Source: Stegostoma tigrinum (lineage: Eukaryota). Taken from it: a stretch of 64,000 nt of DNA. Location of the stretch: the NCBI RefSeq assembly GCF_030684315.1, contig NC_081374.1, positions 38,972,630 through 39,036,629 on the forward strand, given 5' to 3'. Positions 3,753-60,794 of the stretch are shown one piece after another. A program made the position numbers and the translations under genes. Below the pieces are notes generated by a model. The model saw nothing but the letters and a program-made list of their open reading frames with translations. It was not told where the DNA came from and made no database searches. Within the stretch, counting starts at the first letter, position 1. Each line of letters starts with the position of its first letter.

Positions 3753-3886
3753 AGATAACAAAATGTGAAGCTGGATGAATACAGCAGGCCAAGCAGCATC
3801 TGATGCTGCTTGGCCTGCTGTGTTCATCCAGCTTCACATTTTGTTATCTCGGATTCTCCAGCATCTGCAGTTCCCATTATCTCTGA
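3753..3886. mobile_element. Penelope-derived fold-back element with a shortened centre and a 15-bp TSD
   Basis: Palindrome centred near 3800 followed by the unpaired tail. TCACCATTGATAACA is duplicated at 3738-3752 and 3887-3901. Confidence 0.85.
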
Positions 3887-5577
3887 TCACCATTGATAAC
3901 AGTTGCAGCTGCACCACGTGTTATAATTTGGAAACTTGTAAAATTAATAAATTGCAAATATCTAACATTCATATTCTAACTCATTTGCTAGTTCATTGAC
4001 CCCCAGATGATTTTGAGGGTTGAGCTTCAGTATATGGCCCAGTGCTTGCCCTTGGCCTGGCATTGGATACTTAGGTGATGAGAGATTGCATACAGGTAGA
4101 TCTTGTGGCTGTGATAATTCAGATAGTTCAGGGAAACCAAGCTGCTGGAGCATCATGCATTGTTCTCCTGCGGCTTCAAGCTAGTATGCCTCTCTGAGTC
4201 ATTGTGAAACTCGAGCCTGTTAATTCTAGATAACAAAATGTGAGGCTGGATGAACACAGCAGGCCCAGCAGCATCTCAGGAGCACAAAAGCTGACGTTTC
4301 GGGCCTAGACCCTTCATCAGATCTGATGAAGGGTCTAGGCCCGAAACGTCAGCTTTTGTGCTCCTGAGATGCTGCTGGGCCTGCTGTGTTCATCCAACTT
4401 CGCATTTTATTATCTTGGATTCTCCAGCATCTGCAGTTCCCATTATCTCTGATCACCATTGATAACAGTTGCAGCTGCACCACGTGTTATAACTTGGAAA
4501 CTTGTAAAATTAATAAATTGCAAATATCTAACATTCATATTCTAACTCATTTGCTAGTTCATTGACCCCAGATGATTTTGAGGGTTGAGCTTCAGTATAT
4601 GGCCCAGTGCTTGCCCTTGGCCTGGCATTGGATACTTAGGTGATGAGAGATTGCATACAGGTAGATCTTGTGGCTGTGATAATTCAGATAGTTCAGGGAA
4701 ACCAAGCTGCTGGAGCATCATGCATTGTTCTCCTGCGGCTTCAAGCTAGTATGCCTCTCTGAGTCATTGTGAAACTCGAGCCTGTTAATTCTAGATAACA
4801 AAATGTGAGGCTGGATGAACACAGCAGGCCCAGCAGCATCTCAGGAGCACAAAAGCTGACGTTTCGGGCCTAGACCCTTCATCAGATCTGATGAAGGGTC
4901 TAGGCCCGAAACGTCAGCTTTTGTGCTCCTGAGATGCTGCTGGGCCTGCTGTGTTCATCCAACTTCGCATTTTATTATCTTGGATTCTCCAGCATCTGCA
5001 GTTCCCATTATCTCTGATCACCATTGATAACAGTTGCAGCTGCACCACGTGTTATAACTTGGAAACTTGTAAAATTAATAAATTGCAAATATCTAACATT
5101 CATATTCTAACTCATTTGCTAGTTCATTGACCCCAGATGATTTTGAGGGTTGAGCTTCAGTATATGGCCCAGTGCTTGCCCTTGGCCTGGCATTGGATAC
5201 TTAGGTGATGAGAGATTGCATACAGGTAGATCTTGTGGCTGTGATAATTCAGATAGTTCAGGGAAACCAAGCTGCTGGAGCATCATGCATTGTTCTCCTG
5301 CGGCTTCAAGCTAGTATGCCTCTCTGAGTCATTGTGAAACTCGAGCCTGTTAATTCTAGATAACAAAATGTGAGGCTGGATGAACACAGCAGGCCCAGCA
5401 GCATCTCAGGAGCACAAAAGCTGACGTTTCGGGCCTAGACCCTTCATAAGATCTGATGAAGGGTCTAGGCCCGAAACGTCAGCTTTTGTGCTCCTGAGAT
5501 GCTGCTGGGCCTGCTGTGTTCATCCAGCCTCACATTTTATTATCTTGGATTCTCCAGCATCTGCAGTTCCCATTATC
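3885..5577. repeat. Tandem triplication of a 565-566 bp unit (about 345 bp spacer plus about 220 bp fold-back element)
   Basis: GATCACCATTGATAACAGTTGCAGC starts at 3885, 4451 and 5016. The units differ by only a few bases. Confidence 0.95.
4293..4350. ncRNA. Back-to-back minimal type I hammerhead ribozyme motifs (+ 4323-4350, - 4320-4293); further + copies at 4888-4915 and 5453-5480
   Basis: CTGATGA-A-GGG(TCTAGG)CCC-GAAAC-GTC contains the hammerhead core boxes, a stem II, a palindromic ACGU helix III and a GUC cleavage triplet. Activity is untested and stem I is weak. Confidence 0.7.
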
Positions 5578-6898
5578 CCTGTTAATTCTACATTGTTATC
5601 GCTCTGTCTGACCTTCTGACTAGCTATGCTACACATTCTCTCCTTTCCTTGCAGCATCTTCTTTCTATACCATTGTTTCATACCGTATGCCCACTTCAAG
5701 TTGCATGTCTTCCAAAACTGAAACCAATCAGTGCTGCCAATCCTCATCACTAGGAGTACTCACTCGTGTGTACGCCTATCAGTCCAATTCACTCTGAAAA
5801 TCCTTCAGAAATATCAAAGTTCAAAAGACCAGATCTTTATTCTGTCCACTTCCTTTATGGTTTGATATGAATGGAAGTAGGAAACACCAATATTTAACAC
5901 TTTCCTAATAGATTTAGGATGGATAAATTTCAAGGGATGTGATCCCGTAAAAACAAGTGATCAGGAGCCCATTGGAACAGAATAAAATGTGGTTGGGACC
6001 AATATATGCCAGAAGCTGGCTGTAATGTGTACTCCTACAGGGACATCAATATAAGGATATGGGGTCTGAACCCAAAATATTCAGTCTGTTTTGTACAGAA
6101 TGCAGAAACCCGTGCCCTGATTAAGCAGAAACGTTGGATTACCAAGCAGTTTGGGGAATATGAGATTCCCAGCACAGGATCTTGATAGTCCCATGCATAC
6201 AAAATGCCCTCCCTTGTCCCATTTACTCTGGTTGGGCAGGAAGATGGGGAAGGGGGGGCACTAATGTCGAATTCAAATCAAGCTCATATGCATTTGACTC
6301 TGACTTCAGCATTTTAACCTTGCCTGTTTTCAATCTGCGCATTTCAGTTCAAATGTTGTTTAATTTGAGTTATTTGAAATGTGGAGAGAGAAACAGAGTT
6401 AACATTTCAAGTCTAATTTGACTTCTTCAGAAATCTCTCTCACAATTTCTGATTTTATTTTATCGTTGACATCCACCGTTCTATTTCAAATTTGATTATT
6501 TTAGTACTAAGTTCCCACTTTGCCATTATTTACATCTTATAATTTAGGTTATTCAATAATGTACACTTTCAAAGTACAGTAAAACAGCTTTGCCCCATTA
6601 GAGTGGACTGCATGTGACAATCGTCATTGTAACTCTTTGATCAGTAAACATGTGATTCAAATTACTCATTATTGGAACTAATTAGACATTTTCTCTAAGG
6701 GAATGAGTCTGTTGGTTCATTGCCCAAGTGATGAAGATAAAAATTACCTACTTTTCCATTTGTCACAGACATCTTAATTGGCTGTCCAGATGGTCCAATT
6801 TGTACAGTTATCATCCCTACAGTGATAGGGATAGAAAAAAGGAAGTTTGCAGCAGCTGCCTCTTATATATTCACCAATATTCAGACCCTATGTTATGG

Positions 6899-7932: not shown

Positions 7933-8134
7933 AGATAACAAAGTGTGGAGCTGGATGAACACAGCAGGCCAAGCAGCATCTCAGCAGCACAAAAGCTGAC
8001 GTTTCCGGCCTAGAACCTTAGGTCCGAAACGTCAGTTTTTGTGCTCCTGAGATGCTGCTTGGCCTGCTGTGTTCATCCAGCTCCATACTTTGTTATTTTG
8101 GATTCTCCAGCATCTGCAGTTCCCATTATCTCTG
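7933..8134. mobile_element. Penelope-derived fold-back element with TSD
   Basis: About 80-bp inverted arms plus the tail. ATATCAATAGG(AGAT) occurs at 7922 and 8135. Confidence 0.85.
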
Positions 8135-9029: not shown

Positions 9030-9403
9030 CAATGGTCGCAAGGTGGACTTTACTAGTTTCAAAATCTTCCCACCCCCACCTCATCCCGTGACCAACCCTC
9101 CCTCTCATCCCTGCCTCCTTGAACTGCCCATCTTCTCTTCCACCTATCCGCTTCTCCCACCTCACTGACCTATCCCCACCACTGCCTACCTGCACTCACC
9201 TATCACCATCCCAACTACCCACACCAGCCCCACCCCTCCTCTGTATTTATTTCTGAGCTCCCTTCCCTCACCCACTTTGTGAAGAAGAGTCCTGATGTAT
9301 AACATCAGCTTTCCTACTCCTCTGATGCTACCTGCTCTGCTGTGTTCTTCTACCTCTATGCTGTTATTTCTGACTCCAGCATTGGCAGTTCTTATGATCT
9401 CCT
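9030..9403 (+). mobile_element. Old Penelope-like 3' fragment
   Basis: GTGGACTTTACTAGTTTCAAAATC (end of GIY-YIG ORF, compare 29375-29400), a C-rich 3'UTR and a decayed hammerhead region at about 9280. Confidence 0.7.
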
Positions 9404-12896: not shown

Positions 12897-14773
12897 GTCA
12901 TGAGACAGGCTAGCTAGTAATATTAGAAATGATAGTAAAAGCTTCTTTTAATACATAAGAAACAAACGAGAGGCAAAAGTAGACATTGGGCCGCTCCAAA
13001 TTGATGCTGGAAGGCTAGCGATGGGAGATAAGGAAATAGCTGAAGAACCTAATAAGTACTTTGCGTCAGTCTTCACAGTTGAAGACATGAGTAGTATCCC
13101 AACAATTAAGGAGAGCCAGGGGGCAGAGTTGAGTACAGTAGGCATTACGAAAGAGAAAGTGCTTGAAAAGCTAAAGGGTCTAAAAATTGATAAATCTCCT
13201 GGCCCCGAGGGGCTACATCCTAGAGTTCTGATGTAGGACGCTGAGGAAATAGCGGAGGCTTTCGTTGTGATCTTTCAAAACTCACTGGAGTCTGGGAAAG
13301 TCCCAGATGATTGGAAAATTGCTGTTGTAACCCCCTTGTTTAAGAAAGGATCAAGACAAAAGATGGAAAATTATAGGCTGATTAGCCTAACCTCGGTAGT
13401 TGGTAAAATTCTAGAATCCATTGTCAAGGATGAGATTTCTAAATTCCTGGAAGTGCAGGGTCAGATTAGAATAAATCAGCATGGATTTAGTAAGGGGAGG
13501 TCGTGCCTGACAAACCCGTTAGAATTCTTTGAAGAGGTAACAAGTATGTTAGACCAGGGAAACCCAGTAGATATTATCTGTCTAGACTTCCAAAAGGCCT
13601 TTGATAGGGTGCCTCACAGGAGGATGCTGAGCAAGGTGAGGGCCTTTGGTGTTCAAGGTGAGCTACTGGTTTGGATTGAGGATTGGCTGTCTGATAGAAG
13701 GCAGAGAGTTGGGATAAAAGGCTCTTTTTCAGAATGGCAACCGGTGATGACTGGTGACCCGCAGGGTTCAGTGTTGGGGCCGCAGCTGTTCAATTTATAT
13801 ATTAATGTTCTGGATGAATGGACCGGGGGCATTCTGGCGAAGTTTGCCAATGATACGAAGATAGGTGGACAGGCAGGTAGTACTGAGGAGGTGGGGAAGC
13901 TGCAGAAAGATTTAGACAGTTTAGGAGAGTGGTCCAGGAAATGGCTGATGAAATTCAACTTGAGCAAATGCAAGGTTTTGCACTTTGGAAAAAAGAATAC
14001 AGGCATGGACTATTTTCTAAACGGTGACAAAATTCATAAAGCAGAAGTACAAAGGGATCTGGGAGTGTTGGCCCAGAATCCTCTAAAAGTTAACTTGCGG
14101 GTAGAGTCGGTGATTAAGAAAGCGAATGTAATGTTGTTTATCTCAAGGGGGTTGGAATATAAAAGCAGTGATGTGCTTCTGAGACTTTATAAAGCTCTAG
14201 TTAGGTCCCATTTAGAATACTGCATCCAATTTTGGGCCCCACACCTCACGAAGGACATACTGGCCCTGGAGCGTGTCCAGCGAAGATTCACACGGATGAT
14301 CCCTAGAATGGTAGGTTTAATGTATGATGAACGGCTAAGGATCCTGGGATTGTATTCATTAGAGGTTAGGAGGTTAGGAGGTTGAGGGGAGATCTAGTAG
14401 AAACTTACAAGATAATGTATGGCTTGGAAAGGGTGGACACTGGGAAGTTGTTTCTGTTAGGCGGGGAGACTGGGACCCCTGGGCACAGCCTTAGAATTAG
14501 AGGGGGTAAATTTAAAACGGAAATGAAGAGACATTTCTTCAGCCAGTGAGTGGTGGGCTTGTGGAATTCATTGCCATGGAGCGCAGTGGGGGCCAGGACG
14601 TTGGATGCCTTCAAGGCAGAGATCGATAATTTTTTAATCTCACAAGGAATCAAGGGCTACAGGGAGAGTGCAGGGAAGTGGAGTTGAAATGCCCATCAGC
14701 CATGATTTAAATGGCAGAGTGGACTCGATGGGCTGAATGGCCTTACTTCCACTCCTATGTCTTATGGTCTTAT
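12897..14773 (+). mobile_element. CR1-clade LINE, 5'-truncated, RT region and 3'UTR
   Basis: ORF 13267-14385: VPDDWKIAVVTPLFKKG, QHGFSKGRSCLTN, LDFQKAFD, PQGSVLGP, and FAND (mutated FADD). It ends in a CTTATGGTCTTATG tail. Confidence 0.95.
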
Positions 14774-15743
14774 GAGAGGTAAAACATTTTGTTGGAGGCA
14801 AACCCACGTGATATTAGCAGTAGTGGCCATATAGAAAAGTTTTTAACATTTTGGTGGCAGATACAGGGAAAACTAATTGAAGACCAACTTGGCAACAGCT
14901 TTGGACAAGAGAATCTGGATAAAGGGAGAATCATCATCTTAAGCAGAATCATTTTCTCTAAGTACAATCAGTTGCACAAATCTATAGACAGATTATTAAC
15001 CACCAAGAATTTAGAGCTGGCTTCTGTTTTGACTAGAATACATTTTCCTTAAATGCATTTCTCAGAAACCCATAATTAAAAGAAATTTAATAAAATAAAA
15101 AGGTTGCAGTGCACTTTTGAGCTGCAAATCAAAGCTGGAAGAATGCTCCGGTTTTGTGGTCACTACAGACGCAATTTTTTTTTAAACCAGCTGCTAAAAA
15201 GTCTGTCGTCTTAAAGAAATAGTAGCTTCTAATCTACAGACGATCCTGAAAAGTCATACCATCACTGCATCATCAATGCACAAAAGGTCTAGCAGACTGA
15301 ATGGCATGTACTATCAAATCAGTGATCATTAAGGGTTGAGCAACTGAGCAAGGCTTTAGGTGTTGTAATGCTGCATTTCTCCACAACACCAATAGAGAAG
15401 AGTTTACCATTACCTATACTCGGAAGGCAAGTCTGAATGATGTTACCCAGCAGTCAATTCTCTCACCATTCTGAGATACATGACATCCTTCTTCACGGAT
15501 GGAGGAGAATGGAAGAGGTATATGTTACGTGACTAGATAGAGAACTACCAAAAGTGTGCACTGAGCAGAATGTGAGAGTTTTACATTCAAATCCAAATAC
15601 TTGGATACCAGCAAAGGCTTCTAAAATGTGCAACCATCTCAGCTCGTGCAACTATTGCTGATGATGGTACTATATTACAAAGCAGCAGAAGCCAGGTCAG
15701 ACTGCACAGTATTCATGTACCACAACAGTGAGGTAGGACACTC

Positions 15744-15783
15744 TGATGATGATAATGATGATGATGATGATGATGATAATGAT
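15744..15783. repeat. Imperfect (GAT)n microsatellite
   Basis: TGATGATGATAATGATGATGATGATGATGATGATAATGAT. Confidence 0.9.
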
Positions 15784-16985
15784 TGGGCAGTAGTGATGAG
15801 TGACAGCAACCAGTGGTAAGACAAACAAGTTGGGCATCTTTCCTGGTGAGTACCTGATCACCAGATCTGAATGTGTTGTCAAACCAACTCTTGCCCTGCA
15901 CGCTCCCCCCCTCCCTCCCGCCAAAAGCATCACATTGAAGATTGAATGTATTAGTCCCAGAACCTCTGTTTTATCTGTTTCTACAACTGACAAGACATGT
16001 CTATGTAAAACCTTGCATATTGGCTCGAAACATAATTTTTCATCTAAGGAAAAAGGGCATGTTGCATTATGTCTCATGGACAGTATGTTAGTGTGTCGTT
16101 CAGAGGTAAGGATGAACAAGGGTAGGCTGGGCCCCAGGGGAAAGGTTGACATATTTGAATCAAATTATAAAGAATTGAGCTCAATTGGCTAAGTGACTGA
16201 TATAAGACTTGGGATATCGGCCAATTCCCAATTCAGCCATCGTAGTCTTGCAACATTCCCCCTTCCTTGCCCTGAGAGTGGAAGACCAAGGAAAACCACC
16301 ACTGACCAACAATTCCAGGAAAACAGCTCAGTACAAAGCATCAACAGACAGTGAGCCAATGATCAATTTTGCTACAGAGCATTCATACAATGCTGTGCAG
16401 CACAGACTAAAGGCCTGACATATCTACATGACATTTGAAATTTCTTCCTACCTACTTTGTGTCACACTATCAACACATTTCTTTCTCCCTCGTGTGCTAA
16501 TCCAGCTTCTTCTTTAATGCATCTATATTATTTGCTTCATCCACAATAGTGAGTCATACATTCCCATCACCTTTGAGGAGAGAGGATTTTCTTGAATTCC
16601 TTTTTGGAATTGTTAGTGACTATCTTATATTTATGGCCATTTCTCCCTACCTGTGAAAGATGTTTTATCAACACCAATGAATTTTTTCATGAGTTTAAGA
16701 ATATCTCTGAAGATACCCCTTGGTCTTTTTTGCCTTGACAGTTTGACCCTTTCACTTCTGTAAACATTTTTCACACTTTCTTAGTGCTGTTCTATTCTAT
16801 TGTCTGATTTCCGCACTGACACATTTTCCAGAAGGAATGAGTTGAAGTAGAAGCAGGATATCTGGTTAGATCTTCTTCAAAACTCATTGTGAGAATCTAT
16901 CAGTCACATTTGGATCTTTCACACTGCATAGGTATTGAACCTGAAATCTTGGGAATTTTTTTTGGGATAGTGATTCCTTCAGACA

Positions 16986-17497
16986 TGACAGAATCGGCCA
17001 AGGCAAGACTCTTGTGCTGAAGCATTGGTTTGGCCTGAGCTTAGTGTGAAATTATTGTGTCCTGATCTTTTTTTCAAGAGAGATTTTAAGGCAGAGGTAA
17101 TGAGTTGTCTGCTTGAAAAGCCAGTAAACAGCTTGTGAGGCCTTGGTTTACTAAAGTTGGAACAATTGAAGCAACCTGGCTGGGTGTGGCCAGCTCTCAC
17201 AGATCAGGATTTCTAGTGGTTTTTTTAAGGTTTAGCTTTAAGCAGTTGGTGTTGGTGTCTCAGCAGGGCAGAAGCTGCTGGAGATTTGAAGAAATAGAAG
17301 CCATCTTTTCCCTCCCTGGCTTACAGCTAGAGGCTGGGGTTTCTCTCTGTTGCTGGGTTACCTGACAGACAAATTTATTTTTCTGAATTTGCCTTTTTGT
17401 CATGGAGCATGTTTATGGGTTGTCACTATATTGGAAAAGTTAAGGTCCAGGCTACCCTCTTAAAATATTTTGAGGGTGTCTAGTCTGGCTCATAACA
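16986..17497. mobile_element. Possible solo LTR or other interspersed repeat
   Basis: A block of about 510 bp with TG...CA-like ends (TGACAG...CATAACA). No clear TSD was found. Confidence 0.25.
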
Positions 17498-18087: not shown

Positions 18088-18273
18088 TTAAAGGTCACTA
18101 GCCAGGGAGCTTGAGGAGAAATTGAAACATGATCTGAGGAAACATACAGAAGCACTGCTGCAGGGACAGAAGGTTGAGGTAGCTTCTTTCTCCCACTCTG
18201 GTAACAGTGTATCCCTCCTCCTCTGGCCCTCTATCACCTCCAGTGCTACTTCTAAGAACTCTGCACCCGGCAT
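18088..18273 (-). mobile_element. Degenerate Myb/SANT-like coding remnant (Harbinger-type accessory gene)
   Basis: PGAEFLEVALEVIEGQRRRDTLLP resembles the F..LEVL.....RR..L.P start of MSANTD-type domains. Confidence 0.35.
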
Positions 18274-22560: not shown

Positions 22561-22896
22561 CTCTCTTGGTTGGATGACCTAAAGATGGTCGTTGTCCAGA
22601 ATGTTCTGCTGAAGGGTCTCACTGAAACCTTACTTTCTCTTGAGACGCTAGCTGAACTGTATGGACATTCCCAACGGCAACATTCTCTTTTTAGTTGGGG
22701 ATCTTGAGAATAAATATGGATGCTGAAGGGGAAAGTGTCCAGAATAGGAGACTTGATAGCCTGCTTTCTTTCTTTAACCTGGGTCTTGAATGGGTCCTGA
22801 AACGTTTTTTAACAAGAGTTTCTGCAAAAAGATTTCCAAATAAAACAGAGAACTCCCGCATCCTCAGGATGTCACAAAGCACTTTAGAATTAATGA

Positions 22897-23117
22897 GATA
22901 ACAAGGTGTAGAGCTAGACGAATACAGCAGGCCAAGCAGCATCAGAGGAATAGAAAAGCTGACGTTTCAGGTCTAGATCCTTCTTCATTCTCTGAAGAAG
23001 GGTCTAGACCTGAAATGTTAGCTTTCCTGCTCCTCTGCAGCTTAGCCTGCTGTGTTCATCCAACTCTACACCTTGTTATCTCAGTTTCTGTCGCATCAGT
23101 AGTTCCCATTGACTCTG
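22897..23117. mobile_element. Penelope-derived fold-back element with a 13-bp TSD
   Basis: Inverted arms around about 22990 with a decayed core CTGAAGAAGGGTCTAGACCTGAAATGTT. TTAGAATTAATGA occurs at 22884-22896 and 23118-23130. Confidence 0.85.
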
Positions 23118-24689
23118 TTAGAATTAATGATGTACTTTTTAATTGAAGTTTCTGTTGTGATTCAAAAAAAGTAGTTAAGTGGTACATTATTGACCAGGGT
23201 TTTGGGAGGGGTCTGGTAGTTTTCTGAATATAGTGCCATGCATCAATAGATGGAGTCTTATTTATCTCTCTTGAAAGCCAGCAACTCTGACAATGCAACA
23301 ATCTCATAACGCTGTCCTAGCCTATTGTCAGTGAACTCACAAGCTTCTGACTTAGAGTTGATTATGTGATCTACTGAATCATAGCTGACACTTGTAAGTA
23401 CTGTGACAGAGAAATCAGCGCTTGGTGTTGTGCTTTTTTAAATCTAAATCTGTATGTCCAACTAGCCAAGCAAGTTACAACACAATTGTCCTTTTCCAGA
23501 GATAATGGGAACTGCACATGCTGGAGAATCCAAGATAATAAAGTGTGAACCTGGATGAACACAGCAGGCCGAGCAGCATCTCAGGAGCACAAGTGGTCAG
23601 TATTTATGCATACATCCTGATATCAAGGGTCAATCAGCTATCTATTGTACAGGATATCTTCAGTTAGCTTCGACCGAGTCCTCATCCCTTATTTGCACAT
23701 TTACTTTTTCAGTAGAGATCACAGCTTAGCAATCAGGAGTTAAAATTGTTTGCTCAATGTGGGACTCTGACTGTAGCATTGTCAAACCTCCACCATCTTA
23801 TAACTAAAGTGAACCGGACATTCCTAAGAGCCACTACTCAGTGGAGATGGCGGCACTTATGCTATTAGAATGGAGAAAGTCATTGACCTTCTTCCTACAC
23901 CATTAGATCTCTGAGAGATGGCTGAATCAGTGGCTTTCCTGAGACCAGGCTGGCATAGTCTGGTGCCATGGTCTCCACTGCTAATCCTGGGGGAAGAGCT
24001 TGACCACAAGTTGTCTTGACGGCAGTTATGGTACTGGAATCAAATAAGGGGCAAGTTATGAGGTGAATTTGGTAAGATATGGCGAGAGAACCTGCTATCT
24101 TGTAGCAAAAAAACCTCCAAAAAACCCTACATGACTCACACTTAGCCAAAGAAATGGAAGAGTTAATCTATGGATTTCAAGCTTCTGTGTATAATTTAGT
24201 GATCATAAGTAAGTTTTGTGGTGTCATTATTGGAACATAGGAAAACCACAGCAACAAGAATAGGCCTCAAATCTGCTGTTCAATTAGATCATGACTGAAC
24301 TGTAACTTTACTTTCTACCCACCTTAGCTCCTTATCCTTGATATTCATACTTCATAAGTTTTGCCCTTTTCAATTGACCCCCAGTCTTTGAAATATTAGA
24401 TTTTCAGATTTTTGCTGCCCATTATGCGAAGAAGTGCTTTCGGATATCACTGAAATCAAAACAAAATACTATAGATGCTGGACATTTGAATAAAAACAAA
24501 GTGCCAGAAGAAATATGTAATGGTACGGAGTCATTTTGGACTTAAAGCATTAACTTTTCTTTTCTCTCTCCACAGCTGCTGCCAGACTTCCTGTGTTTCT
24601 CCTGCATTTTCTGTTTTCTTCCGGAAATCACCCCTGACTGACCTACTTTGCTGTTAAGTTTTGATTCTCCATAACATTTGAAAATGCTC

Positions 24690-27775: not shown

Positions 27776-27948
27776 TTAGTGATCCATCTTATCCTCAATA
27801 CCTTATACTCAGCCTACCACTGCACCTGGACCTTCCTCCCACCAAGGCTCATATTCTATGACTCCCACTGTTAACTGCTACATCTCCCCTCACTCACTCT
27901 CATCCTTCTTAATCCATAACACCTCTAACCCTACATGCCCTATGTGTT

Positions 27949-29843
27949 AGAGATAATGGGAACTGCAGATGCTGGAGATTCCAAGATAATAAAATGTGAG
28001 GCTGGATGAACACAGCAGGCCAAGCAGCATCTCAGGAGCACAAAAGCTGACGTTTCGGGCCTAGACACTTCATCAGAGAGGGGGATGGGGGGAGGGAACT
28101 GGAATAAATAGGGAGAGAGGGGGAGGTAGACCGAAGATGGAGAGTAAAGAAGATAGGTGGAGAGAGTGTAGGTGGGGAGGTAGGGAGGGGATAGGTCAGT
28201 CCAGGGAAGACGGACAGGTCAAGGAGGTGGGATGAGGTTAGTAGGTAGCTGGGGGTGCGGCTTGGGGTGGGAGGAAGGGATGGGTGAGAGGAAGAGCCGG
28301 TTAGGGAGGCAGAGACAGGTTGGACTGGTTTTGGGATGCAGTGGGTGGGGGGGAAGAGCTGGGCTGGTTGTGTGGTGCAGTGGGGGGAGGGGATGAACTG
28401 GGCTGGTTTAGGGATGCAGTAGGGGAAGGGGAGATTTTGAAACTGGTGAAGTCCACATTGATACCATATGGCTGCAGGGTTCCCAGGCGGAATATGAGTT
28501 GCTGTTCCTGCAACCTTCGGGTGGCATCATTGTGGCAGTGCAGGAGGCCCATGATGGACATGTCATCAAGAGAATGGGAGGGGGAGTGGAAATGGTTTGC
28601 GACTGGGAGGTGCAGTTGTTTGTTGCGAACTGAGCGGAGGTGTTCTGCAAAGCGGTCCCCAAGCCTCCGCTTGGTTTCCCCAATGTAGAGGAAGCCGCAC
28701 CGGGTACAGTGGATGCAGTATACCACATTGGCAGATGTGCAGGTGAACCTCTGCTTAATGTGGAATGTCATCTTGGGGCCTGGGATGGGGGTGAGGGAGG
28801 AGGTGTGGGGACAAGTGTAGCATTTCCTGCGGTTGCAGGGGAAGGTGCCGGGTGTGGTGGGGTTGGAGGGCAGTGTGGAGCGAACAAGGGAGTCACGGAG
28901 AGAGTGGTCTCTCCGGAAAGCAGACAGGGGAGGGGATGGAAAAATGTCTTGGGTGGTGGGGTCGGATTGTAAATGGTGGAAGTGTCAGAGGATAATGCGT
29001 TGTATCCGGAGGTTGGTAGGGTGGTGTGTGAGAACAAGGGGGATCCTCTTGGGGCGGTTGTGGCGGGGGCGGGGTGTGAGGGATGTGTCGCGGGAAATGC
29101 GGGAGACGCGGTCAAGGGCGTTCTCGATCACCGTGGGGGGAAAGTTGCGGTCCTTAAGGAACTTGGACATCTGGGATGTGCGGGAGTGGAATGTCTTATC
29201 GTGGGAGCAGATGCGGCGGAGGCGGAGGAATTGGGAATGGGGGATGGAATTTTTGCAGGAGGGTGGGTGGGAGGAGGTGTATTCTAGGTAGCACTGCCAC
29301 AATGATGCCACCCGAAGGTTGCAGGAACAGCAACTCATATTCCGCCTGGGAACCCTGCAGCCATATGGTATCAATGTGGACTTCACCAGTTTCAAAATCT
29401 CCCCTTCCCCTACTGCATCCCTAAACCAGCCCAGTTCATCCCCTCCCCCCACTGCACCACACAACCAGCCCAGCTCTTCCCCCCCACCCACTGCATCCCA
29501 AAACCAGTCCAACCTGTCTCTGCCTCCCTAACCGGTTCTTCCTCTCACCCATCCCTTCCTCCCACCCCAAGCCGCACCCCCAGCTACCTACTAACCTCAT
29601 CCCACCTCCTTGACCTGTCCGTCTTCCCTGGACTGACCTATCCCCTCCCTACCTCCCCACCTACACTCTCTCCACCTATCTTCTTTACTCTCCATCTTCG
29701 GTCCGCCTCCCCCTCCCTCCCTATTTATTCCAGTTCCCTCCCCCCATCCCCCTCTCTGATGAAGGGTCTAGGCCCGAAACGTCAGCTTTTGTGCTCCTGA
29801 GATGCTGCTTGGCCTGCTGTGTTCATCCAGCCTCACATTTTAT
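27949..29843 (-). mobile_element. Penelope-like retroelement (Neptune-like), 5'-truncated with an inverted terminal copy, in APOBEC2 intron 1
   Basis: Minus frame 29290-28301: RT C-terminus (YLEYTSSHP...SQFLRLRRICS), one in-frame TGA at 28987-28985, a Cys linker PCNRRKCYTCPH, then GIY-YIG (NVVYCIHCTRCGFLYIGETKRRLGDRFAEH). 29291-29843 is an inverted copy of 27989-28541. TSD TGCCCTATGTGTT at 27936-27948 and 29844-29856. Confidence 0.93.
29754..29785 (+). ncRNA. Minimal hammerhead ribozyme motif in the Penelope terminal repeat, sense to APOBEC2 pre-mRNA
   Basis: CT-CTGATGA-AGGGTCTAGGCCC-GAAAC-GTC-AG. The mirror copy is on - at 28076-28049. Confidence 0.7.
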
Positions 29844-31719
29844 TGCCCTATGTGTTGCCTATTCACTGGGTTGGGACAGCTCCCTTTCTGCACCAGTGGT
29901 AAGAGCTGTGATAGTCAATTTCATTGCATTTAGTATCTGTCGCTTTCTCATTCCAGAAAAAAAAGCCAACAATAGGGCAGAAAGAGTCAAGAGAGGTGCT
30001 GAGCTGCCTATTATTCTGCTCTTCACCCCTTATGAGGAGAATATCCTAACTCTGACCATTCTGATTAGCTGACTAACTATGTCCAAGCCCCTGGTTGGTA
30101 CTGGATGCTGTCCTTGACTATCTGTGCCAGGACTTCCTCACTGAAGGCTATCTCCATTGACTTGCCTGAGGGTATGCTGACATCCATGGTAAGCCTCCTG
30201 GCTTTGTGTCTACGTTAAATAACAAAGCAATACAGCAATGCTGTGTGCATGGTACCTCTGGCTGAGAGGGCAAAGTGTGAAAAGACAATGCAAGGCAGGA
30301 AAGCTGTGACCATTCAGGTGTGCACAAAGAGGGTGAGCTTGCAAAGAACATGCAAACAGGCCATGGGTGCAGGCCTCTCCATCCCTGAGTCCACTGACTC
30401 TGTGAGGCATTACAATGATTGTTGCTGATGCAGTCTGGGGTGCACCATTGAATGACATAGGTGTCCTGTAAGTGGCTGGGAGACATGCCATTAGATTTCC
30501 TAGACAATGACACATGTCAAGTGCTAATGTAAGTGGACATGGGGTTGACATTGAGTGTACCCTGGGATGATGAAGACTGTTTGGAAGCAGCTCTGACTTG
30601 CATGTCAAGTATTCTTGTTGTCTAGTTTACTCATGGTGGGTGGTCCTATAGAAAACAACATATTAATGATGTGAGATCTGAAGCTCATTAGGTCATTGAC
30701 AATTAATAATACTCGTTTCATAGGTAACTCACTGCTCCCAGGCAAAAATTTCATCTCAACACGAAGAACTTAGTTAATACATGCAGCAAACTGTTCCCAA
30801 TATCAAGGTAGGATTAGCTGAACTTTTCATCTGATTCTGTCACATTTCTCACCATAGTCTAGTGTGATCAGGTTCCACAATAAGATTCCACCACAAAATA
30901 AATTGAACCTCCTTTTGAAAAGTGTTATGTCATTGTTTATAGTAAGATAGGATGGTTGCTGCTGTATTGTGGAAATGGTGTTTAAATGGTGAGATAAGAT
31001 GACTGTGTAACTGGTGACAAACGAGTCGATTTATGAATTGTGAGGTAAGCATGAGGTTGTGTGTTATAACTATGACTTTTCTAATACACATGTGAACAGC
31101 CTTCTCCTAAAATAAAAAAAACATAATTTTAAATTCATTAAAACAAACTAAATATGTGACAATGAGAATTTAGATTTAAAGTACAAATAAGGCAAGTTAT
31201 GGTTTTTACCCAATGCTGGGCTGTTTAACAGCTTCTACTCAACCCATTCAGAGATGTTATTACACACTACTGAAGCAGGTGGGACTTGAACCCAGGCCTC
31301 ATGGCTCAAAGTCGGTGACAACACAAGGGACTCAGGTTTCATGCTTTGAATTCTAAGGCTCAACACTGGCCCCAGCTATGTGTTTCAATGTGAAGTGGGA
31401 GTACTTTGGATGAAATTTTGCTGCAACGGAAGAGCTGAATCCACTCCTACCCGTTTTGCAGCCACATGTTTCTCCAGTTCCGAAGAAAGGTCACTAGACT
31501 CGAAATGTTAACTCTGCTTTCTGTCTCCAGATGCTGCCTGATCTGCTGAGTTTCTCCAACAATTTCTGTTTTTGTGTGTTTCTCCTATCTTTGTGGATCT
31601 GTCTTGTGCTGATGATCCTTTTTCCAAATCGGTCCTTCATAAAAACAAAAGGTAGACTGCATTCCTCTGATTATTAAAATTATCTTCATAAATAAAGCTG
31701 ATGATGCAAATGTTAAATT

Positions 31720-43244: not shown

Positions 43245-43995
43245 ACAAAAATAAAGTTGCTGGAAAAGGCTAGCAGGTCTGGCAGCATCTGTGGAGGAGA
43301 AAACAGAGTTAACATTTCGTGTCTGGTGACCCTTCCTCAGAACTGATGGTGACTGGGAAAACATCAGTTTATATGCAGAAAACAGGGAGGTGGGTGGGGT
43401 AGGGAGTAAACGATAGGATAGAGCCCAAAGAGAGAGAGAGACAGTTGGACAGACAAAGGAGTTGCTAATGATCAGGCTGGGACGGTGAATTGTTAATGGG
43501 GACTGTTAGTGAGTGGCAACGGCGGGTGTGGAGTGGCAGTCTGTGTGGTAACAAGGCCTGGTGTGTGGGGTGGGGGGGCTGGGACATGGGAGAGTTTAGG
43601 CCCTAACATTATTGAACTCAATATTGAATCCAGAAGGCTGGAGGGTCCCCAAGTGGAAAATGAGGTGTTGTCCCTCCAGCTTGCGTTGGGCTTCACTGGA
43701 ACACTGTAGCAAACCAGAGACAGAGATGTTGGCCAGGGAGCAAGATGGTGCATTGAAGTGGCAGGCAACAGGGAGTTCAGGGTCTTTTTTGCGAACCTTG
43801 TATAAACAAAGTTGCTGGAAAAGCTCGGCCGGTCTGGCAGCATCTGTGAAGGATAAAAGAGTTCTGAGGAAGGGTCACCAGACCTGAAACGTTAACTCTG
43901 TTTTCTCCTTCACAGATGCTGCCAGACCTGCTGATCTTTTCCAGAAACTTTGTTCTTGTTCCTGATTTACAGCATCTGCAGTTCTTTTGTTTTTT
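43245..43995. mobile_element. Second Penelope-like family: minus-strand GIY-YIG 3' fragment plus a fold-back terminus
   Basis: Minus frame about 43610-43775 reads PVACHFNAPSCSLANISVSGLLQC...QHLIFHLGTLQPSGFNIEFNN. A hairpin spans 43805-43955. Confidence 0.8.
43858..43899 (+). ncRNA. Minimal hammerhead motif with a full 6-bp stem I
   Basis: AGAGTT-CTGAGGA-AGGGTC(ACCA)GACCT-GAAAC-GTT-AACTCT. Confidence 0.65.
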
Positions 43996-47589: not shown

Positions 47590-47936
47590 AGATAGTAAGA
47601 ACTGCAGATGCTGGAGTCAGATATAACACAGTGTGGAGCTGGAGGAACACAGCAGGTCAAGCAACATCAGAGGATTAACTTAAGGAGCTGCAGAGAAAAC
47701 TGTTTTTGGACGATCTGGATGTTGTGCATGTAGAAGTTATTGTGGTCAGGTCCAAATTGGGATGGCCTGAATGTAGATTGGAGTCCAATGGTGATGATCC
47801 AGTTCCATAGGCAAGTACCGAGGAAGTACCTGCAGGTACTTCTCTGAAGAAGAGTCTCGATCCGAAACGTCTACTTTCTTGCTCCTCTGATGCTGCCTGG
47901 CCTGCTGTGTTCCTCCAGATCCATACTGTGTTATCT
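47590..47936. mobile_element. Fold-back Penelope-derived element enclosing about 165 bp of unrelated sequence
   Basis: Arms at 47590-47675 and 47843-47936. TSD TCATTATACCCTG (47577-47589) versus TCATTACGCCCTG (47937-47949). Confidence 0.75.
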
Positions 47937-48344
47937 TCATTACGCCCTGGCTTGCTAATAAGCACAATTGGGTAAGGTTAAAGATAGCAGAACCTGTTCA
48001 TCAGCTTAATAAAAGGCAAGATACTGTGGCTGCTGGAAATCTGAAACAGCATCTCTTGGGAGAGAAACAGAGTTAATGTTTCAAGTCCAATGTGACTCCT
48101 CCCCAGAACTTTTTTCTGCCAATTAGTTGGAATATAATTGGAACTGTCAAGCTGTAACCAGAACATTCCCAAAGATGTTGCTGAATGTGGCATGCACATT
48201 AAATCTAGATAGGCGCACATAATTGAATGAAAGATCAGAATGCAGTTCGCTTGTAAACCATAGATTGTCCTTTGAGACTGGTCACATTTCAATTAGTCTT
48301 CTGGCTTATGAGATTTTCATTTCCATTTCCATAAATTGAATAAA

Positions 48345-48916: not shown

Positions 48917-49155
48917 AGAGATAGTAAGCACTGCAGATGCTGGAGAATTTGAGATAACAAGCTGTAGAGCTGGATGAACACAGCAGGCCCAGCAGCATCA
49001 GAGGAGCAGGAAAACTGACATTTCTGGCCTCGACCCTGCTTCAGAAAAATGAAGGGTTTTTTCTGAAGAAGAGTCTAGGCCCGAACTGTCAGCTTTCCTG
49101 CTCCTTTGATGCTGCTTGGCCTGCTGTGTTCATCCAGCTCTACACCTTGTTTAAC
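48917..49155. mobile_element. Penelope-derived fold-back element (tail on the left)
   Basis: Inverted arms around about 49050 with a decayed core CTGAAGAAGAGTCTAGGCCCGAAC at 49063. Confidence 0.8.
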
Positions 49156-49629
49156 TCAGTAGGACTCTCATTTTAGTTATTTTGGTCATACTGGGAAACA
49201 CCCAAACTCAGTTTTAGACTAACTCTATCCCGTAGTGCCTTACTTATTGTTGCATTGTTATATGTCATGTGAGGCTCTCGCGTATCTTTGTATAATTCCA
49301 GCTGTCTCGTTAGGTATTTATAGTTCAGCCAGTCTAAGGGAGGATACGCCAAAGACCAGGGTAATCCAGTCAGAACTACAATGAGGATGGAAACTTTTCC
49401 AACTATGGGATGGTGATGAATTGGCTGCTGCCAGCAGTAATAATGATCTTTTCATCTACTCTATATATGGTTTTCTGGTCAGCAATGCAGTACAAATACG
49501 TATCCAGCTTGTAACAGCTTGAAGCCTGTCTGCTTGTGATAGGTGCAGCCTGAAATAAACAGGAATTGCGAAGCAGTGCAGCATCCGTGTAGTCTTGCAA
49601 GCAATCCGAGCACATTGATTCTTAGTGGT

Positions 49630-53000: not shown

Positions 53001-56000
53001 ATGTTATAAAGATACTGTACTGAACTAACAGAACTTGGTGTTCCTATGCATAAAGGATCAGTAGATAGAAGCATTATGCCACAATTATACATGGGCATAC
53101 TTTGGAATGTGCTTGATGTTCCTGACATTACTGCATAAGAGCTTAAATGGGAGATGCTGAGAAATCAGATTCTTCTAATTATTATTAACCTTTCCAGAAT
53201 GGACCCATGCGCAGCTTACGTGAGATGCACAAGTATGTGCATTTACAAGCATGGAACTGAAGCAGAAAGGAGTGTATACATGATATAGAAAGGTGCAGGA
53301 TTTGCCACCTGCTTTCTTAGTAAGCAGACAAAACTCAACTCAAAATTACCATTTCACTGCTTATTTAACATTATTTGCAACAGACGTCACAGAACCGAAA
53401 CAGCAGAAATAACAAATGATAGCGTGCTCAAATGAATTTACTTTACAACCTTCACAAAGGAGAAAATGGAAATCCCAGATTCTAAACCTAGCAATCTAGA
53501 GGCAGAATAATCAAATTTGCAATATCATTTATTTAGGTAATATTTGTCTCCCACTAGCCCAATTATTAAAACTTATATCAGTAAAGTTACATCTTCAAGA
53601 CTCCAGGTCGACACAGTGTTGGATAGTTGTCATTCCTGTATCCTAGAGTAATCTTGATGCAGATTGCTCCAGAGCTAATCGGGAAATTGGGAAGTATTGA
53701 GTTGTAAAGGCAAGAAAAACTTAGTCTATCATTTTCTTCCAAAATTTGCGGAGTTCTTCTATATTTTCCTCTCTTGAAGAATCGTTCCAACTGGGCTTCG
53801 ATATCCAGTTCTTGCGCATTGATTCAACATTTCCAAGGTAGGACTGTAATTCCTTGCAACAACATTCCCCTTTACCATTTTCAACAGAAAATGCACTGTA
53901 TCTTCAAAAATACATCTTATTATAATGCAGTACACACAATCATTTACTTAACTAAAATGATTAAAAACAGTGCAACAGTTAAGTGTGTCAGGAGTACACT
54001 AAATTTTCAGCTTTCAATGTGCCCATATTTTCCTTTCACATGAAGCGAATATGGAAAAGCAGGGACAGACTGAAATGAATCTTCTCGTTGTTCTATGTCA
54101 GCAACAGCTCACCATTTTTCAAATTTGCTCCAGCTGAGCAAACCAGCAGATCATTTCAGGATAGGAACAGGTTTGCTGTTACCCCGCCGCCGCAGTCAAA
54201 AATTTGACAAGACTTGCAGTTTTAAGGCGGCTTCAGGAATAGTACAAATTTATGTGTGTTTCATGAGCATGTTTTGTACATGTCAATTTCTAAATACTAT
54301 AGAAACTTGTGGAGGACCAATGTCTTCAGTGATCGCAAATGCAAAAGACGTTTGTGTTAATAGTAGCTTTTGAAAAGGATTAAAATTCACAAACAGATTC
54401 CCAAATAAACTGATAAATTGATAGCACTTCAGCTAAGAAGGATTAGTTCAGCTACACTACAGAAGATCATGTCCAGATAAATGTAATGCAGCACCACCAG
54501 AACTAGAATGACACACCAGTGAAGGGTTATGCATATGCAGCATTGTAGAAAACATCACAAACTAAGCTTATAAATAAACAATTTAGAAATCATGGGCCAT
54601 CTTCCAATTTAAAATCAGCACAGCAAAAATATATGATGCTAATCTGCTGCAAAACTACTTTAAATGATTATACAGTTTTCATTTACACTTCTAATCCATT
54701 CTTTTGTTTACTCACTCATCCTAATGTCCCTTTAGCTTGTCACTCTTATTCTCCATCCTAGAACATATGTTCCTCTTAGTATTTGCTTGCCTACCTGACT
54801 CTGAATTTGTATGGACTGTTAAATCTGCGACAGTTTTTTCAATTCAGTTGACCAGTCATGACCTGAAACATTAACACTCATTTCTTCTCTCCACAGGTAC
54901 TGCCGGACCTGCTGAAAACTTTCATCCTTTTCTGCTTTCCAGTTCACAATTACACTCCTGGCAGTTCCTGATGAGTGGATTCCTCATAAGTTACATTCAT
55001 TATAATCCTGTAGGATTCTGAACCACAGCCTAATACTGTGCTGCTGCCAGGTTTTGCAGATTAGTTTTATGTAGTTTGAACTGATGGTATAGACAGTGCT
55101 GCTCTGGAAGGTTAAAGGAGTCAATTATGCACTGTAAGACTCAAGTCATCTAGGGCTTATTACAAACATTATCAGTTTACTGAGGAGTAGCTGGCATCAT
55201 TTTCAAGCCAGCAACATAATGTCAACAATGTTTTAAATGGAAATTGGAGCCCATGGGATTAAAAGGGACATTGGTTTCTGGACATGAAATCGCAAAGAGA
55301 CTGCAATTATGAACAGCTGTTTTCCAGACTGAAGGAACTATTCAGTGGCATCTAAAGGCTCTTGTGATATAGTGATAGTATTCCCTACCTCTAAACCAGG
55401 GAGACCTTGATTTCAGCCCTACCTATTGCAGACATGTGTAATAACAGATGTTATATTTCTGAACAGGTAGATCGGGAAGCTATGTGCAGCGGTGCCTCCC
55501 AGTGCTCAGCTCTGGGACCACTGTTCTTTTGCAGCTAATGTGAAAAATGAATGTAGCAAACAGTGGGAATGCCTAAAGATAGGGAGAACATGGTGAAATA
55601 GCACAGACATACAGTAGGTGAGAGTTAAAGCCTGATTCATTTATTTTTAAATCGGAAAAAAAAACACGAGTGGGAACACAAACTAAATGATACATTTGTA
55701 AAGTGGGTGCAGAAACAGAGGCGCAAGGGAAGATTTGTTTTAAGCTCTTGCTGGGACCAGGCACTAGCACTTAAACGCTTTCCAGGTTCCATCTCAGTCC
55801 TGGATCATTTGTCCCAGAGGTGGATTGAGGTTACAGCAGGGTCATTGGCCCGTATACTACAGGTAGCTAATTAAACTTGTAATACAGCACAAGAAGGGGA
55901 TGACCCATCCTGCTATCAATCTTGCCCCATAAACTTTACAGGAGACATTTTGACTTGCATGAGACAAAGAAGGGTCAAAAGGGAGATTAAGTTGACCAGC

Positions 56001-57212: not shown

Positions 57213-57388
57213 GATAACACAGCATGGAACTGGAGGAACACAGCAGGCTGGGCAGCATCAGAGGAGCAGGCAAGTTGACATTTTGGGGTCTTCAAAAAGA
57301 GTCCTGGCCCAAAACTTCATTTTTCTTGCTCCTCTGCTGCTACCTAGCCTGCTGCTGTGTTCCTTCAGCGCCACACTGTGTTATCTCT
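57213..57388. mobile_element. Penelope-derived fold-back element
   Basis: Inverted arms, with CTCTGGGCA repeated on both sides. Confidence 0.75.
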
Positions 57389-57985
57389 GGACTCTGGGCA
57401 CATGGATTCAAATCTCTCAACTGGTTGTTAGTGAAATTTAAAAATTTAATTGATAATTCTGAAATATGAAACAAATCTGTAATGATGCCCCTGAAATCTT
57501 ATCAATAGTGTAAAAACTTCACCCATTGCCTTCAAGGACCACTACACTACCATTCCTGTGGCCCCCCCCCCCCACCTGTGAAATCCTCCCAGCCATCATT
57601 TATTACTACTTGTGGATTTGGTCATTACACAATCTTGAGTCTCTCAAAAACAAAAGGCACTCCAACAGCTCCCGCCACATATCCAAGGGAAGCCTGGAAG
57701 CTCTCAGCAGGGTCCTGATTCTGGAGAAGGTCCAGTAGTTTCTCAAATGCCCAGTGGGTTCAGCAGGTCTTTTCCAGAGGAAGTAATCTTTCTGACATGC
57801 TGCCTAGCAGGTGAGAACAATCCTGAGAATATTTTTTAAACCAAACATTAAACAATCACTCACAAGTAAATTCACCTACATAAGTTATTTTTGCCAAATC
57901 TGAGGCTACTTGAAATCCAAAGTAGTTAACGCACTAAGAATTCAAATACCCATCTTCACATTCTATTTACTATTAATGTATGCTG

Positions 57986-58121: not shown

Positions 58122-59824
58122 CTGGAGAGCAAACAAAACTGATTTTAGCCCAGAGTTAGTGGTGATGCAGAATATGAAGACTGCAAAATCCTAAAGCCCA
58201 GAATATTTTAGCAGTTTAACACCCAAATATATACAAGATAGTAAACTGTAGAACCTCTTCCACCACTGAGGATGATCGTGGCTGATGTTACTTCAATTCT
58301 CCAGTTACCCACTTGCTGTCATATCCCTTAATTCGCTGAAACAAAGTCCTTAGTTTTAATTTATTCAGCAATGGAGCATTCACAATTTTCAGATAGGATA
58401 ATGTTTTGGAAGTCACCCAAGTGAAAAAGTTTCTCACTCTTGCACATCTGTGCAAACTCCACAATCTCCCAGTGTCTGCATGAATTTCCTCTCAGTGTTC
58501 TAGTTTCCTCCCACAGTCCAAAGATCTGCAGGTGAGGTGGAGTGGACATGATAGATAGATTGGACACGGTGAAATCAATGCTGAAGATAAAGCACAGGCC
58601 TCCCAACAGCCTGTGGGAGATAGAGGGAAGAATATATAGACAGATTTTAGGAAAGAAGTGAAAACTGCAGGTTGTTGCGGTGAGTGATTTTAACTTTCCC
58701 TATATTGACTCGGATTCACTACATGCAAGGGACTCGGATGGGGCAGAGTTTGTAAGAACCATTTCGGAGGGATTCTTGATTCTTACATGTAAAACACTCC
58801 AAACAGGGAAGAGGTAAAATTGGGATAGCAAGAACTGCAGATGCTGGAATCAGAGACGACAAAAAGTGTGGAGCTGGAGGAACCGAGCAGGCCAGACAGC
58901 ATCAGGGGAACGGGAAAGCTGATGCTTCGGGTTGGGGCCCTTCTTCATATACATGAACAGGAAGGGAACAGAAGGATACAGACCTGGAAGTGAAAACAGT
59001 TTTAGTATGGAAGGGGAAAACGTAGTGGCATAGGCTTAGAGGGCCAAAGGACCTGGTCCTGTGTTGGATTGTTCTTTGTTCTGAATTGCCTGCAGTGTCT
59101 AGGTGTGTGCAGGCTCGGTGGATTAGCCATGGGAAATGTAGGTTACAGGGGCAGGGTAGGGGAGGTGGGATGCTCTTTGGAGGGTCAGCGTGGACTTGAT
59201 CCACACTGCAGGGATTCTATGATTTAGGATTTTAAAAAAAAGTATATTCACTATGGAGACCACTTAAAGCTGCAATGTTGGCTATTAACTGGAGGAGATC
59301 TGCTGGGCTTTGGGTTACCTTCAATTTCTCGTATTTAAATGGTACCTTCCATTGCAGGGAGAAAAAAAATTCTGCAATTTCTTTATTTTCATGATAATAC
59401 CTTCTGTCTGTTTCTAAGGGACCAATTCTCCTCCTTTGCATTTCCTTGCAATTTTTCATATTCCCGGTTAAATCACATGCACATTTTTTAAACCTCTTTT
59501 CCAGCATTTTGACAGCTCTTTACTGCTTTTCAAAACTTTTAGGTCAACAAGCTGACGACGATTTTCTAAAACTCCCTTTCAATCGAATACAATATTTACA
59601 TTCCTTATTAAGCCATTTTAAATCTTTGGTCCCGAATTTTTTTTCTCAATTATGTTTCTTTTTGTACATTTTGAATAATTTCTTTCAACATTTTGTTATT
59701 GCTCACTTGAGTGCTGAAAAAAAAAATCAAGTCATACTATTCCCAGAGTTGTGACAAAAAAGGTTTTGAAAAGTACACAAAATTCTGCAATTTGTCTTAT
59801 ATAACCAGGTTAACAAAGCATGGA

Positions 59825-59931
59825 TAATAAAATGTGAGGCTGGATGAACACAGCAGGCCCAGCAGCATCTCAGGAGCACAAAAGCTGACATTTCGGGCCT
59901 AGACCCTTCATCAGAGAGTTCCCATTATCAC
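59825..59931 (-). mobile_element. Single-arm Penelope-derived element with a 14-bp TSD
   Basis: TAACAAAGCATGGA at 59811-59824 and 59932-59945. A hammerhead-like core lies on - at about 59914-59887. Confidence 0.8.
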
Positions 59932-60794
59932 TAACAAAGCATGGAACCAGTTTCAGTATTTAAGAACACAGTACTAAACTGATGGAATGGAGAAAATAAA
60001 AATACATGGATGTTACAGGTAGAGGGAAAGATGGAGAATTTTCCAGGGATCTCTCCCCATTGTGTTTACTGAGATGTTTCTTGGGCTGATCATAATCCTG
60101 CTTCTTGATCTTCCTTCTCTGGACACTTTCACTTGTTTGTAGAAAGCATAAGGTCACTGGTTCACACTTAAGTCCAACATTTTTCAAATTATGTTTTACT
60201 TCAACTGAAGGAGAAAGAAACTAGTTTTGTTCAGGCTTGTGTTTTTTTTTTGTTAATTGCAGAGAATGGAGAAAATTCTTTGGCTAGCAGAGATTTAATG
60301 GGTTTTCAATCCTGAGAGACTATCACAATTGGTCGGCAGACAGAAGGCCTTGTCATTGGTAAATGATCACTAGTCCACAGACCAGATACTTGTCAGTTGA
60401 ATACAGATTTGTGCACAACCCTTAGCTCTTGCTCATCTACAGACTGTTTAGTACTGCTTGAACTAGCAGCTGTGTAAACAATGAGTGTCAGGCTACCCTG
60501 TTTCCAAATCACTACAGCAATCCCTCAGGGTTTTATTTGAAAAAATATTTTCCTGTTTCAGTCTACAACTCATAATAGAAAAATAATGTAGATTTTACAA
60601 CTTGTTTGTTAACAGTCACACTTTTAAGATCATACGATAAAGGGCTGAATGGCCTAATTCTGCTTGAGCCTATTCCACCATTTGATCAGGGCTGATCTCA
60701 AACCCATTCTCTTGCCTTTTCTCTGTAAAGGGTGATCTATTTCTTCAGTTCAGCCAACCTTCTCTTGTTTAAACAAAGCCAATTGTGTGCCTAA

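Follow-up and report, generated by a model that had tools for sequence, protein, structure and literature searches.

Short fold-back insertions from a Neptune-type Penelope-like element in Stegostoma tigrinum and their preferred inner end at the hammerhead edge

The 64,000-nucleotide stretch of Stegostoma tigrinum DNA analysed here (assembly GCF_030684315.1, contig NC_081374.1, positions 38,972,630 to 39,036,629 of the forward strand; hereafter the window) contains a Penelope-like element (PLE), family A, and a set of short, often palindromic insertions that match its 3′ end. The family A element is composed of a sense copy, a tail and, on the 5′ side, an inverted arm of 554 bp, in which 29291–29844 repeats 27988–28541 at 99.1% identity with the last bases missing. 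The copy is broken off before the reverse transcriptase core and retains a C-terminal piece of the open reading frame (ORF; 227 residues), in which a CX4CXXC linker lies ahead of a GIY-YIG endonuclease. The Pfam match to this endonuclease (PF01541, E = 5e-4) lies under the curated cut-off; many homologues of the ORF piece carry PF01541. Named relatives of the ORF come for the most part from rays, skates and a shark and are 51–64% identical. A CX2-5CXXC linker is a feature of Neptune and common to Nematis as well (PMC8557442), and the linker and the weak endonuclease match together fit this type. From its sequence, we classify the parent as a Neptune-type, endonuclease-containing (EN+) PLE. An ATG located 3′ of its hammerhead begins a frame that continues across the tail as far as the end of the element (27949–28002, minus strand) and is probably the start of the ORF of a next tandem copy, as in other PLEs.

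All places first listed as short insertions match the 3′ end of 27949–29844, at 70–98% identity, and the unpaired tail described with them is present. We count 11 independent short family A insertions, including 1841 and 58832, with 47590 and 47841–47937 taken as one and 4229 and 4794 excluded. The latter two had been listed as insertions, but they lie within a tandem duplication of 565 bp (3802–5016 versus 4368–5581, 99.0% identity), and their flanks are chimeric, the left derived from 5359 and the right from 3753. The CAGA/TCTG fold, originally ascribed to the youngest copies in general, is thus found at 5359 and represents one event in the window, not three. The duplication is the product of either unequal exchange or assembly; if it is real, the short copies serve as recombination substrates. 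Six of the 11 insertions are simple hairpins with arms of 45–94 bp (3753, 5359, 7933, 22897, 48917 and 57213), whereas most copies had earlier been described as near-perfect palindromes; the others comprise three one-armed copies (1841, 23498 and 58832), one arm with a stub of the tail and one interrupted pair. Target-site duplications (TSDs) of 13–15 bp were found at all six copies for which they had been noted, at 47590 only when 47590–47937 is taken as one element. In a control, 9 of 5000 random site pairs had an exact 13-mer in common. The long element has the same layout of inverted arm, tail and TSD, with longer arms. Layout, tail and TSDs agree with the proposal that the short copies are retrotransposition products of a PLE.

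Two of the insertions have additional sequence at their centers. The ~165 bp between the arms of 47590–47937 (47675–47842) are unrelated DNA of which no second copy occurs in the window, and a perfect 20-bp palindrome (47823–47842) closes this spacer and adjoins the hammerhead edge. At the apex of the 48917 hairpin, an insert of 8 nt (49050–49057) is similar to a piece of the sense stem II region, perhaps as a result of a brief template switch.

The pseudo-long terminal repeat (pLTR) of family A contains a hammerhead core, found by pattern search and reading, with CUGANGA and GAAA cores, a G10.1–C11.1 pair, an extra base after A9 and palindromic positions 15.2–16.2. We number positions from C3 (28076 = 0), so that cleavage is predicted after +27. 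The inner ends of the arms (Table 1), delimited by eye in the sequence and taken from the alignment, are non-random and clustered at the hammerhead's 5′ edge: in 8 of the 11 insertions, or 7 if the decayed 57213 is dropped, an arm ends within −6 to +2 of C3. Under uniform ends the binomial probability is 5e-7 (8/11) or 1e-5 (7/11), values that are indicative only, since the interval was picked after seeing the data. The fold of 5359 lies at 28077, the 5′ edge of the core, and not at the GUC site. The original prediction had placed the fold-back point at the ribozyme; relative to the GUC site the breakpoints do cluster, but 29 nt away from the cut, and none of the 11 family A copies in the window ends at +28, the base after it.

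Table 1 Features of families A and B in the window (inner ends relative to C3; TSD, target-site duplication)
Feature	Position	Strand	Inner end(s)	TSD	Details
Family A element	27949..29844	−		13 bp	5′-truncated Neptune-type PLE; sense copy, tail and inverted arm
C-terminal ORF piece	28301..28984	−			227 aa; CX4CXXC linker and GIY-YIG endonuclease
Tail	27949..27983	−			~35 nt; not present in inverted arms; 27949 and 27984 are loose-end places
Minimal type I hammerhead core	28049..28077	−			C3 = 28076; predicted cut 28049/28048
TATA-like box TATTTAT	28104..28110	−			34 nt upstream of C3; predicted promoter element
Single arm (1841)	1842..1934	+	+2	none clear	No tail
Hairpin (3753)	3753..3884	+	+44/+45	15 bp, exact	48-bp arms; hammerhead absent
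Local duplicate (4229)	4229..4450	+			Chimeric flanks; no independent insertion
Local duplicate (4794)	4794..5015	+			Chimeric flanks; no independent insertion
Hairpin (5359)	5359..5580	+	−1/−1	13 bp	93–94-bp arms; loop-less fold; tail
Hairpin (7933)	7933..8133	+	+7/+13	15 bp	Fold within stem II; CUGAUGA lost
Longer 5′-truncated copy	9032..9401	+		15 bp, 1 mismatch	Older; no inversion
Hairpin (22897)	22896..23117	+	+1/−4	13 bp	Older
Tail plus 60 nt (23498)	23498..23592	−	+33	none clear	No inversion
Inverted pair (47590)	47590..47937	−	+39/−4	13 bp, 2 mismatches	Older; ~165 bp of other DNA inside
Hairpin (48917)	48917..49157	−	~−5/~−5	none clear	Older; 8-nt apex insert
Hairpin (57213)	57213..57392		+6/+2	11 bp, 1 mismatch	Decayed; tail unclear
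Single copy with tail (58832)	58825..58947	−	+1	none clear	Old
Inverted arm with tail stub (59825)	59824..59932	+	~−4	13–14 bp	Short stub
Family B longer copy	43245..43800	−			ORF C-terminal remnant; TATAAA at −33; initiator-like TCAGTTC
Family B fold-back	43804..43990	+			Predicted to fold as a type I minimal hammerhead (GUU site) with a long helix I
Further short family B copies	6380–6436, 24539–24593, 31475–31575, 38084–38183, 48047–48115, 54860–54915				Absent from the original list; start 2–5 nt before C3 in 4/6

The same inner end appears in public sequence runs aligned to 27930–29290. Four runs were used: X1 (contigs), X9 and X14, which represent three organisms, and X22, which consists of raw bisulfite reads (1,938 Mb). 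Among the X1 rows listed, the top three loose-end places are 27949 (669 contigs), 27984 (938) and 28077 (632), counts that are saturated. Of these, 27949 and 27984 coincide with the known limits of the tail, and 28077 (C3−1) is a preferred 5′ end. The loose letters at all three places agree at 0.37–0.38, the level expected of unrelated flanks, and in X1 the 28077 end is also found in copies with an unrelated flank instead of an inverted arm. Contig depth drops across 28067/28068 by 3.6-fold in X1, 6.3-fold in X9 and 7.2-fold in X14. In X22 the top strand-switch joint among those listed is 28059/28065–28075 (335 + 224 = 559 reads), which we read as the AGA/TCT fold trimmed by conversion, followed by 28056/28057–28059 (117 + 118 = 235 reads), which we read as a fold at the GGCC palindrome with half of the ribozyme lost. 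A depth of ~2 × 10^4 on one strand of X22 implies a very high copy number; bisulfite depth follows C and G content and is no guide to the ratio of short to long copies. Other causes of the 28077 end were considered and rejected: a splice acceptor has no AG ahead of it, an antisense AATAAA near 28104 would direct cleavage on the far side and is missing from family B, and divergent 3′ untranslated regions (UTRs) of subfamilies do not match the agreement of 0.37, compared to 0.72–0.80 at 28162–28248.

The rule for the spacing between a TATA box and a transcription start and the initiator consensus are general knowledge, and motifs of both kinds lie close to the preferred end. The TATA-like box of family A stands ~30 nt upstream of 28077, and no other word in the 3′ UTR (223 nt) matches TAT[AT][AT]A; the box recurs at −35 in the old copy at 9032–9401. 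A sister family, B, is ~65% alike in the arm, and the sequence just upstream is unlike that of family A. Its TATAAA is the sole TAT[AT][AT]A match in 236 nt of the longer copy, and the A of its TCAGTTC is located 29 nt downstream, at −4 from C3, as the first base of helix I. Five of the seven short family B copies start at −2 to −5 (the 48115 end was read by eye), and the two decayed ones align only from stem II. According to published work, transcription of PLEs begins in the upstream pLTR, and an Adineta pLTR has candidate TATA and initiator motifs.

The short insertions arise from the 3′ end (the pLTR) of the PLE, and we propose that their common inner end is likely the 5′ end of the element's RNA, where reverse transcription would run off; we assign this reading a probability of roughly 0.55. 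For the Anolis element in vitro, both target strands are nicked and extended, two internal RNA start sites delimit the tail, and 5′-shortened RNA gives shorter products (PMC11167929). Hammerhead cleavage is dispensable for insertion in that system, in which uncut RNA is the main substrate and no reads end at the cut (PMC11167929). In family A, transcription would start at the 5′ edge of the hammerhead (28077) in the upstream pLTR, and the enzyme would use start sites in the 5′ pLTR, only 94–129 nt from the RNA end. Two cDNAs of ~94 and ~129 nt, primed from both target strands, would run off at the same base, and their end-joining would yield a loop-less palindrome with a one-sided tail and a TSD. 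One cDNA alone would give the single copies ending at 28077; the remaining folds would come from earlier stops or from annealing at short self-complementary words (GGCC, helix I). The layout seen is an arm, a sense copy, the 35-nt tail and a TSD of 11–15 bp, with fixed outer ends at 27949 and 27984. If the inner end is a transcript start, thousands of genomic copies preserve a run-off intermediate.

Several observations weigh against run-off at a transcript start. The family A box is non-canonical, and promoter function is suggested by motif spacing. In D. virilis the mapped promoter is TATA-less and lies further upstream; its start precedes by 46 nt an intron of 75 nt whose end is at helix I, so a TATA-directed start is not general. 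The rows examined in the public runs were the best 15 of 744 joints, 24 of 4135 loose-end rows and, for X1, 12 of 326 between-letter rows. X1 could derive from the same sample as the window. The X22 joints are blurred by bisulfite conversion, and plus-strand depth in X22 does not fall at 28067/28068 (14,626 to 20,272), which we tentatively put down to bisulfite bias (non-CpG C of 0.22 versus 0.09). The strongest strand switches in X1 join the tail to the arm start (27945–27952 with 27984–27986) and imply chained units, which have no direct place in the run-off model. Finally, two of the X1 rows listed break at 28048, the base after the cut (depth 187 and 125), and together with an arm stop in family B they suggest that some ends may be made by cleavage. 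Both of these rows rejoin at 27949, possibly as cleavage-defined tandem units.

A transcript start would not be needed if the short copies were products of ordinary 5′ truncation, with reverse transcription of the 3′ pLTR halting between a protein-bound structured end and a C-rich tract. Upstream of 28077 the sequence changes sharply to C-rich, PLEs typically show variable 5′ truncation and inverted truncated copies, and dead-on-arrival products and an interleaved tree are predicted likewise. However, a stall does not predict TATA and initiator spacing at the same point in two families that are ~65% alike and differ in the sequence just upstream, and a single-base peak and a symmetric blunt fold suit the end of a template better. 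We regard a stall site as possible but rather unlikely.

Run-off may also be only a first step, after which some hairpins are re-copied with their junction intact and form a self-perpetuating, non-autonomous Neptune class, in which the family B form at 43804–43990 could cleave as a dimer; we find this extension doubtful. The original prediction was of a potentially self-propagating, non-autonomous family of ribozyme hairpins. Fold-backs would be transcribed and re-copied in trans, which is feasible because a cDNA across the apex would anneal to a second cDNA and so keep the junction. Consistent with this, two junction classes recur across many reads (blurred by bisulfite), the short copies retain the tail and its start sites, pLTR sequences are enough for trans mobilisation in Adineta, and non-autonomous PLEs are known. 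In the window, though, no two independent hairpins share a junction; the 28077 end is seen beside unrelated flanks too, and in joints of arm plus tail only; the TATA-like box is missing from the short copies; and both recurrent junctions are more simply explained, one by a template end and the other by the GGCC palindrome. Nor do the short copies form a clade of their own as had been envisaged. A tree of 26 arms, 4 of them from long copies (s3753_L, at <80 nt, was omitted), has weak resolution, with 2 of 23 branches strong, and in 0% of 200 bootstrap trees does a single branch separate the short copies from the rest. Short and long labels change 4 times on this tree compared to 3.9 times when shuffled, and long and short copies are intermixed within family A and within family B. 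With the core paired off, copies that hold half a ribozyme and this interleaving, a self-propagating family is unsupported by our data and in our view improbable.

Even less probable is self-priming on an antisense template, in which the 3′ end of an antisense RNA or DNA strand folds back on itself and its extension yields a head-to-head repeat. It was put forward for the palindromes at inverted junctions of Adineta Penelope elements (PMC3846280), and the looped junctions of 7933, 22897 and 48917 could form in this way. The zero-loop AGA/TCT junction offers neither stem nor loop for priming, single-arm copies ending at the same base are left unexplained, and the proposal is older than the evidence for copying of sense RNA onto both target strands.

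The hammerhead itself appears to be a passenger. A core intact on both strands, which had been ascribed to the youngest copies, is found only in 4229 and 4794, while 5359 has it on the plus strand only, and the CUGAUGA half is missing from 3753, 7933 and 23498. Helix I of family A is short of 4–5 bp: it measures 2 bp in the long pLTR and, at the AGA/TCT fold, 1 bp. Folding predictions give the GAA of the core in family A hairpins a probability of 0.001 of being unpaired, and freeing the core would cost 17.6–22.0 kcal/mol in the hairpins compared to 2.0 kcal/mol in the long pLTR. Whichever strand is transcribed, the antisense arm comes first, which would leave no kinetic window for the core. 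The core within these hairpins is thus paired off in the models and predicted to be inactive. A fold set by the ribozyme, as first proposed, also disagrees with the loss of half the core in several copies and with the same end in copies without an inverted arm. The fold-back of family B (43804–43990) behaves differently in prediction: its lowest-energy fold leaves the core free at a penalty of 0, and helix I, of 4 bp in the longer copy, is extended to ~55 bp. Its left arm stops at the base after the predicted cut in this single copy, and annealing at helix I accounts for this stop equally well. The region 43245–43990 is a compound insertion, a longer inverted copy followed by the fold-back, with no clear TSD. 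Although the two X1 breaks at 28048 and this arm stop would suit ends set by hammerhead cleavage, we consider such an origin highly improbable for the short copies, since the main hot spot retains the whole core and lies upstream of the cut by 29 nt, so that those copies come from uncut RNA, copies with a retained core are incompatible with a 3′ cleavage product, no family A copy in the window ends after the cut, helix I is short, and cleavage is dispensable in Anolis.

Broader searches gave the following. Rfam at E values up to 1 returned 21 matches in the window, all under the gathering score, none to a hammerhead and the majority hairpin artefacts. Metagenome and viral contigs gave 0 loci in a pattern scan. 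No head-to-tail hammerhead array was found with TRF (period limit 500), only the local 565-bp duplication, which includes host flank. Outside the two PLE families, the window contains an APOBEC2-type deaminase exon (38530–39087, plus strand; Pfam APOBEC2, E = 6e-60) and, at 13237–14385, 37208–37951 and other places, several fragments that, from their translations, we tentatively take to be reverse transcriptases of CR1-like long interspersed nuclear elements.

Miniature inverted-repeat transposable elements (MITEs) are defined by symmetric terminal inverted repeats and a short TSD of fixed length. Like the MITEs of DNA transposons, the insertions described here are short, palindromic and present in high copy number, but they differ in their one-sided tail, TSDs of 11–15 bp, variable apex and homology to the end of a retroelement, and do not belong with MITEs. 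Their resemblance to MITEs, together with sub-threshold Rfam scores as microRNA precursors, makes them a hazard for annotation.

By title and abstract, literature searches, among them searches on twin priming in Penelope, named vertebrate palindromic Penelopes and shark Penelope hairpins, listed no paper that deals with this family or with a fixed inner end; Repbase, Dfam and subscription papers are outside this search. Further background on PLEs was taken from a review (PMC6765202) and from PMC2377424. The core, extra base, G10.1–C11.1 pair and palindromic 15.2–16.2 are those of the minimal type I hammerheads of PLEs (Cervera and De la Pena 2014, PMC4209133), for which single motifs in truncated copies and opposite-strand pairs 100–700 bp apart are already known. 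Helix I of 2 bp in family A compares with 4–5 bp in Schistosoma families and 2 bp in D. virilis (PMC4209133), and the core of the hairpins here is paired to antisense. The non-LTR retrozymes (Li et al. 2026, bioRxiv 10.64898/2026.07.22.740005) are likewise non-coding, hammerhead-bearing and derived from pLTRs, but they are head-to-tail tandems with a hammerhead per unit, whereas the window copies are head-to-head single insertions with TSDs. Poseidon of Anolis carolinensis (Frangieh et al. 2024, PMC11167929), whose two start sites in vitro correspond to the two fixed outer ends here, belongs to another clade (Penelope/Poseidon), and the main text of that study describes neither fold-back products nor a transcript start.

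The closest parallels are the complex insertions of EN+ PLEs (Arkhipova et al. 2013, PMC3846280; Craig et al. 2021, PMC8557442), which share with the window copies a tail-less inverted arm, a tail (30–40 bp in known cases, ~35 nt here), a long TSD, a palindromic junction, a hammerhead core in the pLTR and, in the long copy, a GIY-YIG ORF with a CX4CXXC linker. In 2013 the origin of the inverted pLTR, including the choice between a sense and an antisense template, was unsettled, and by 2024 validation of later steps was still lacking. Most likely, the short copies are dead on arrival, of a kind already known and with a buried ribozyme. Compared to the insertions described in the available parts of PMC3846280 and PMC8557442, in which no such fixed end appears, the window units are only 90–220 bp long and favor an inner end at one base beside a TATA-like box, and this preferred inner end with its promoter-like context is the new and testable part.

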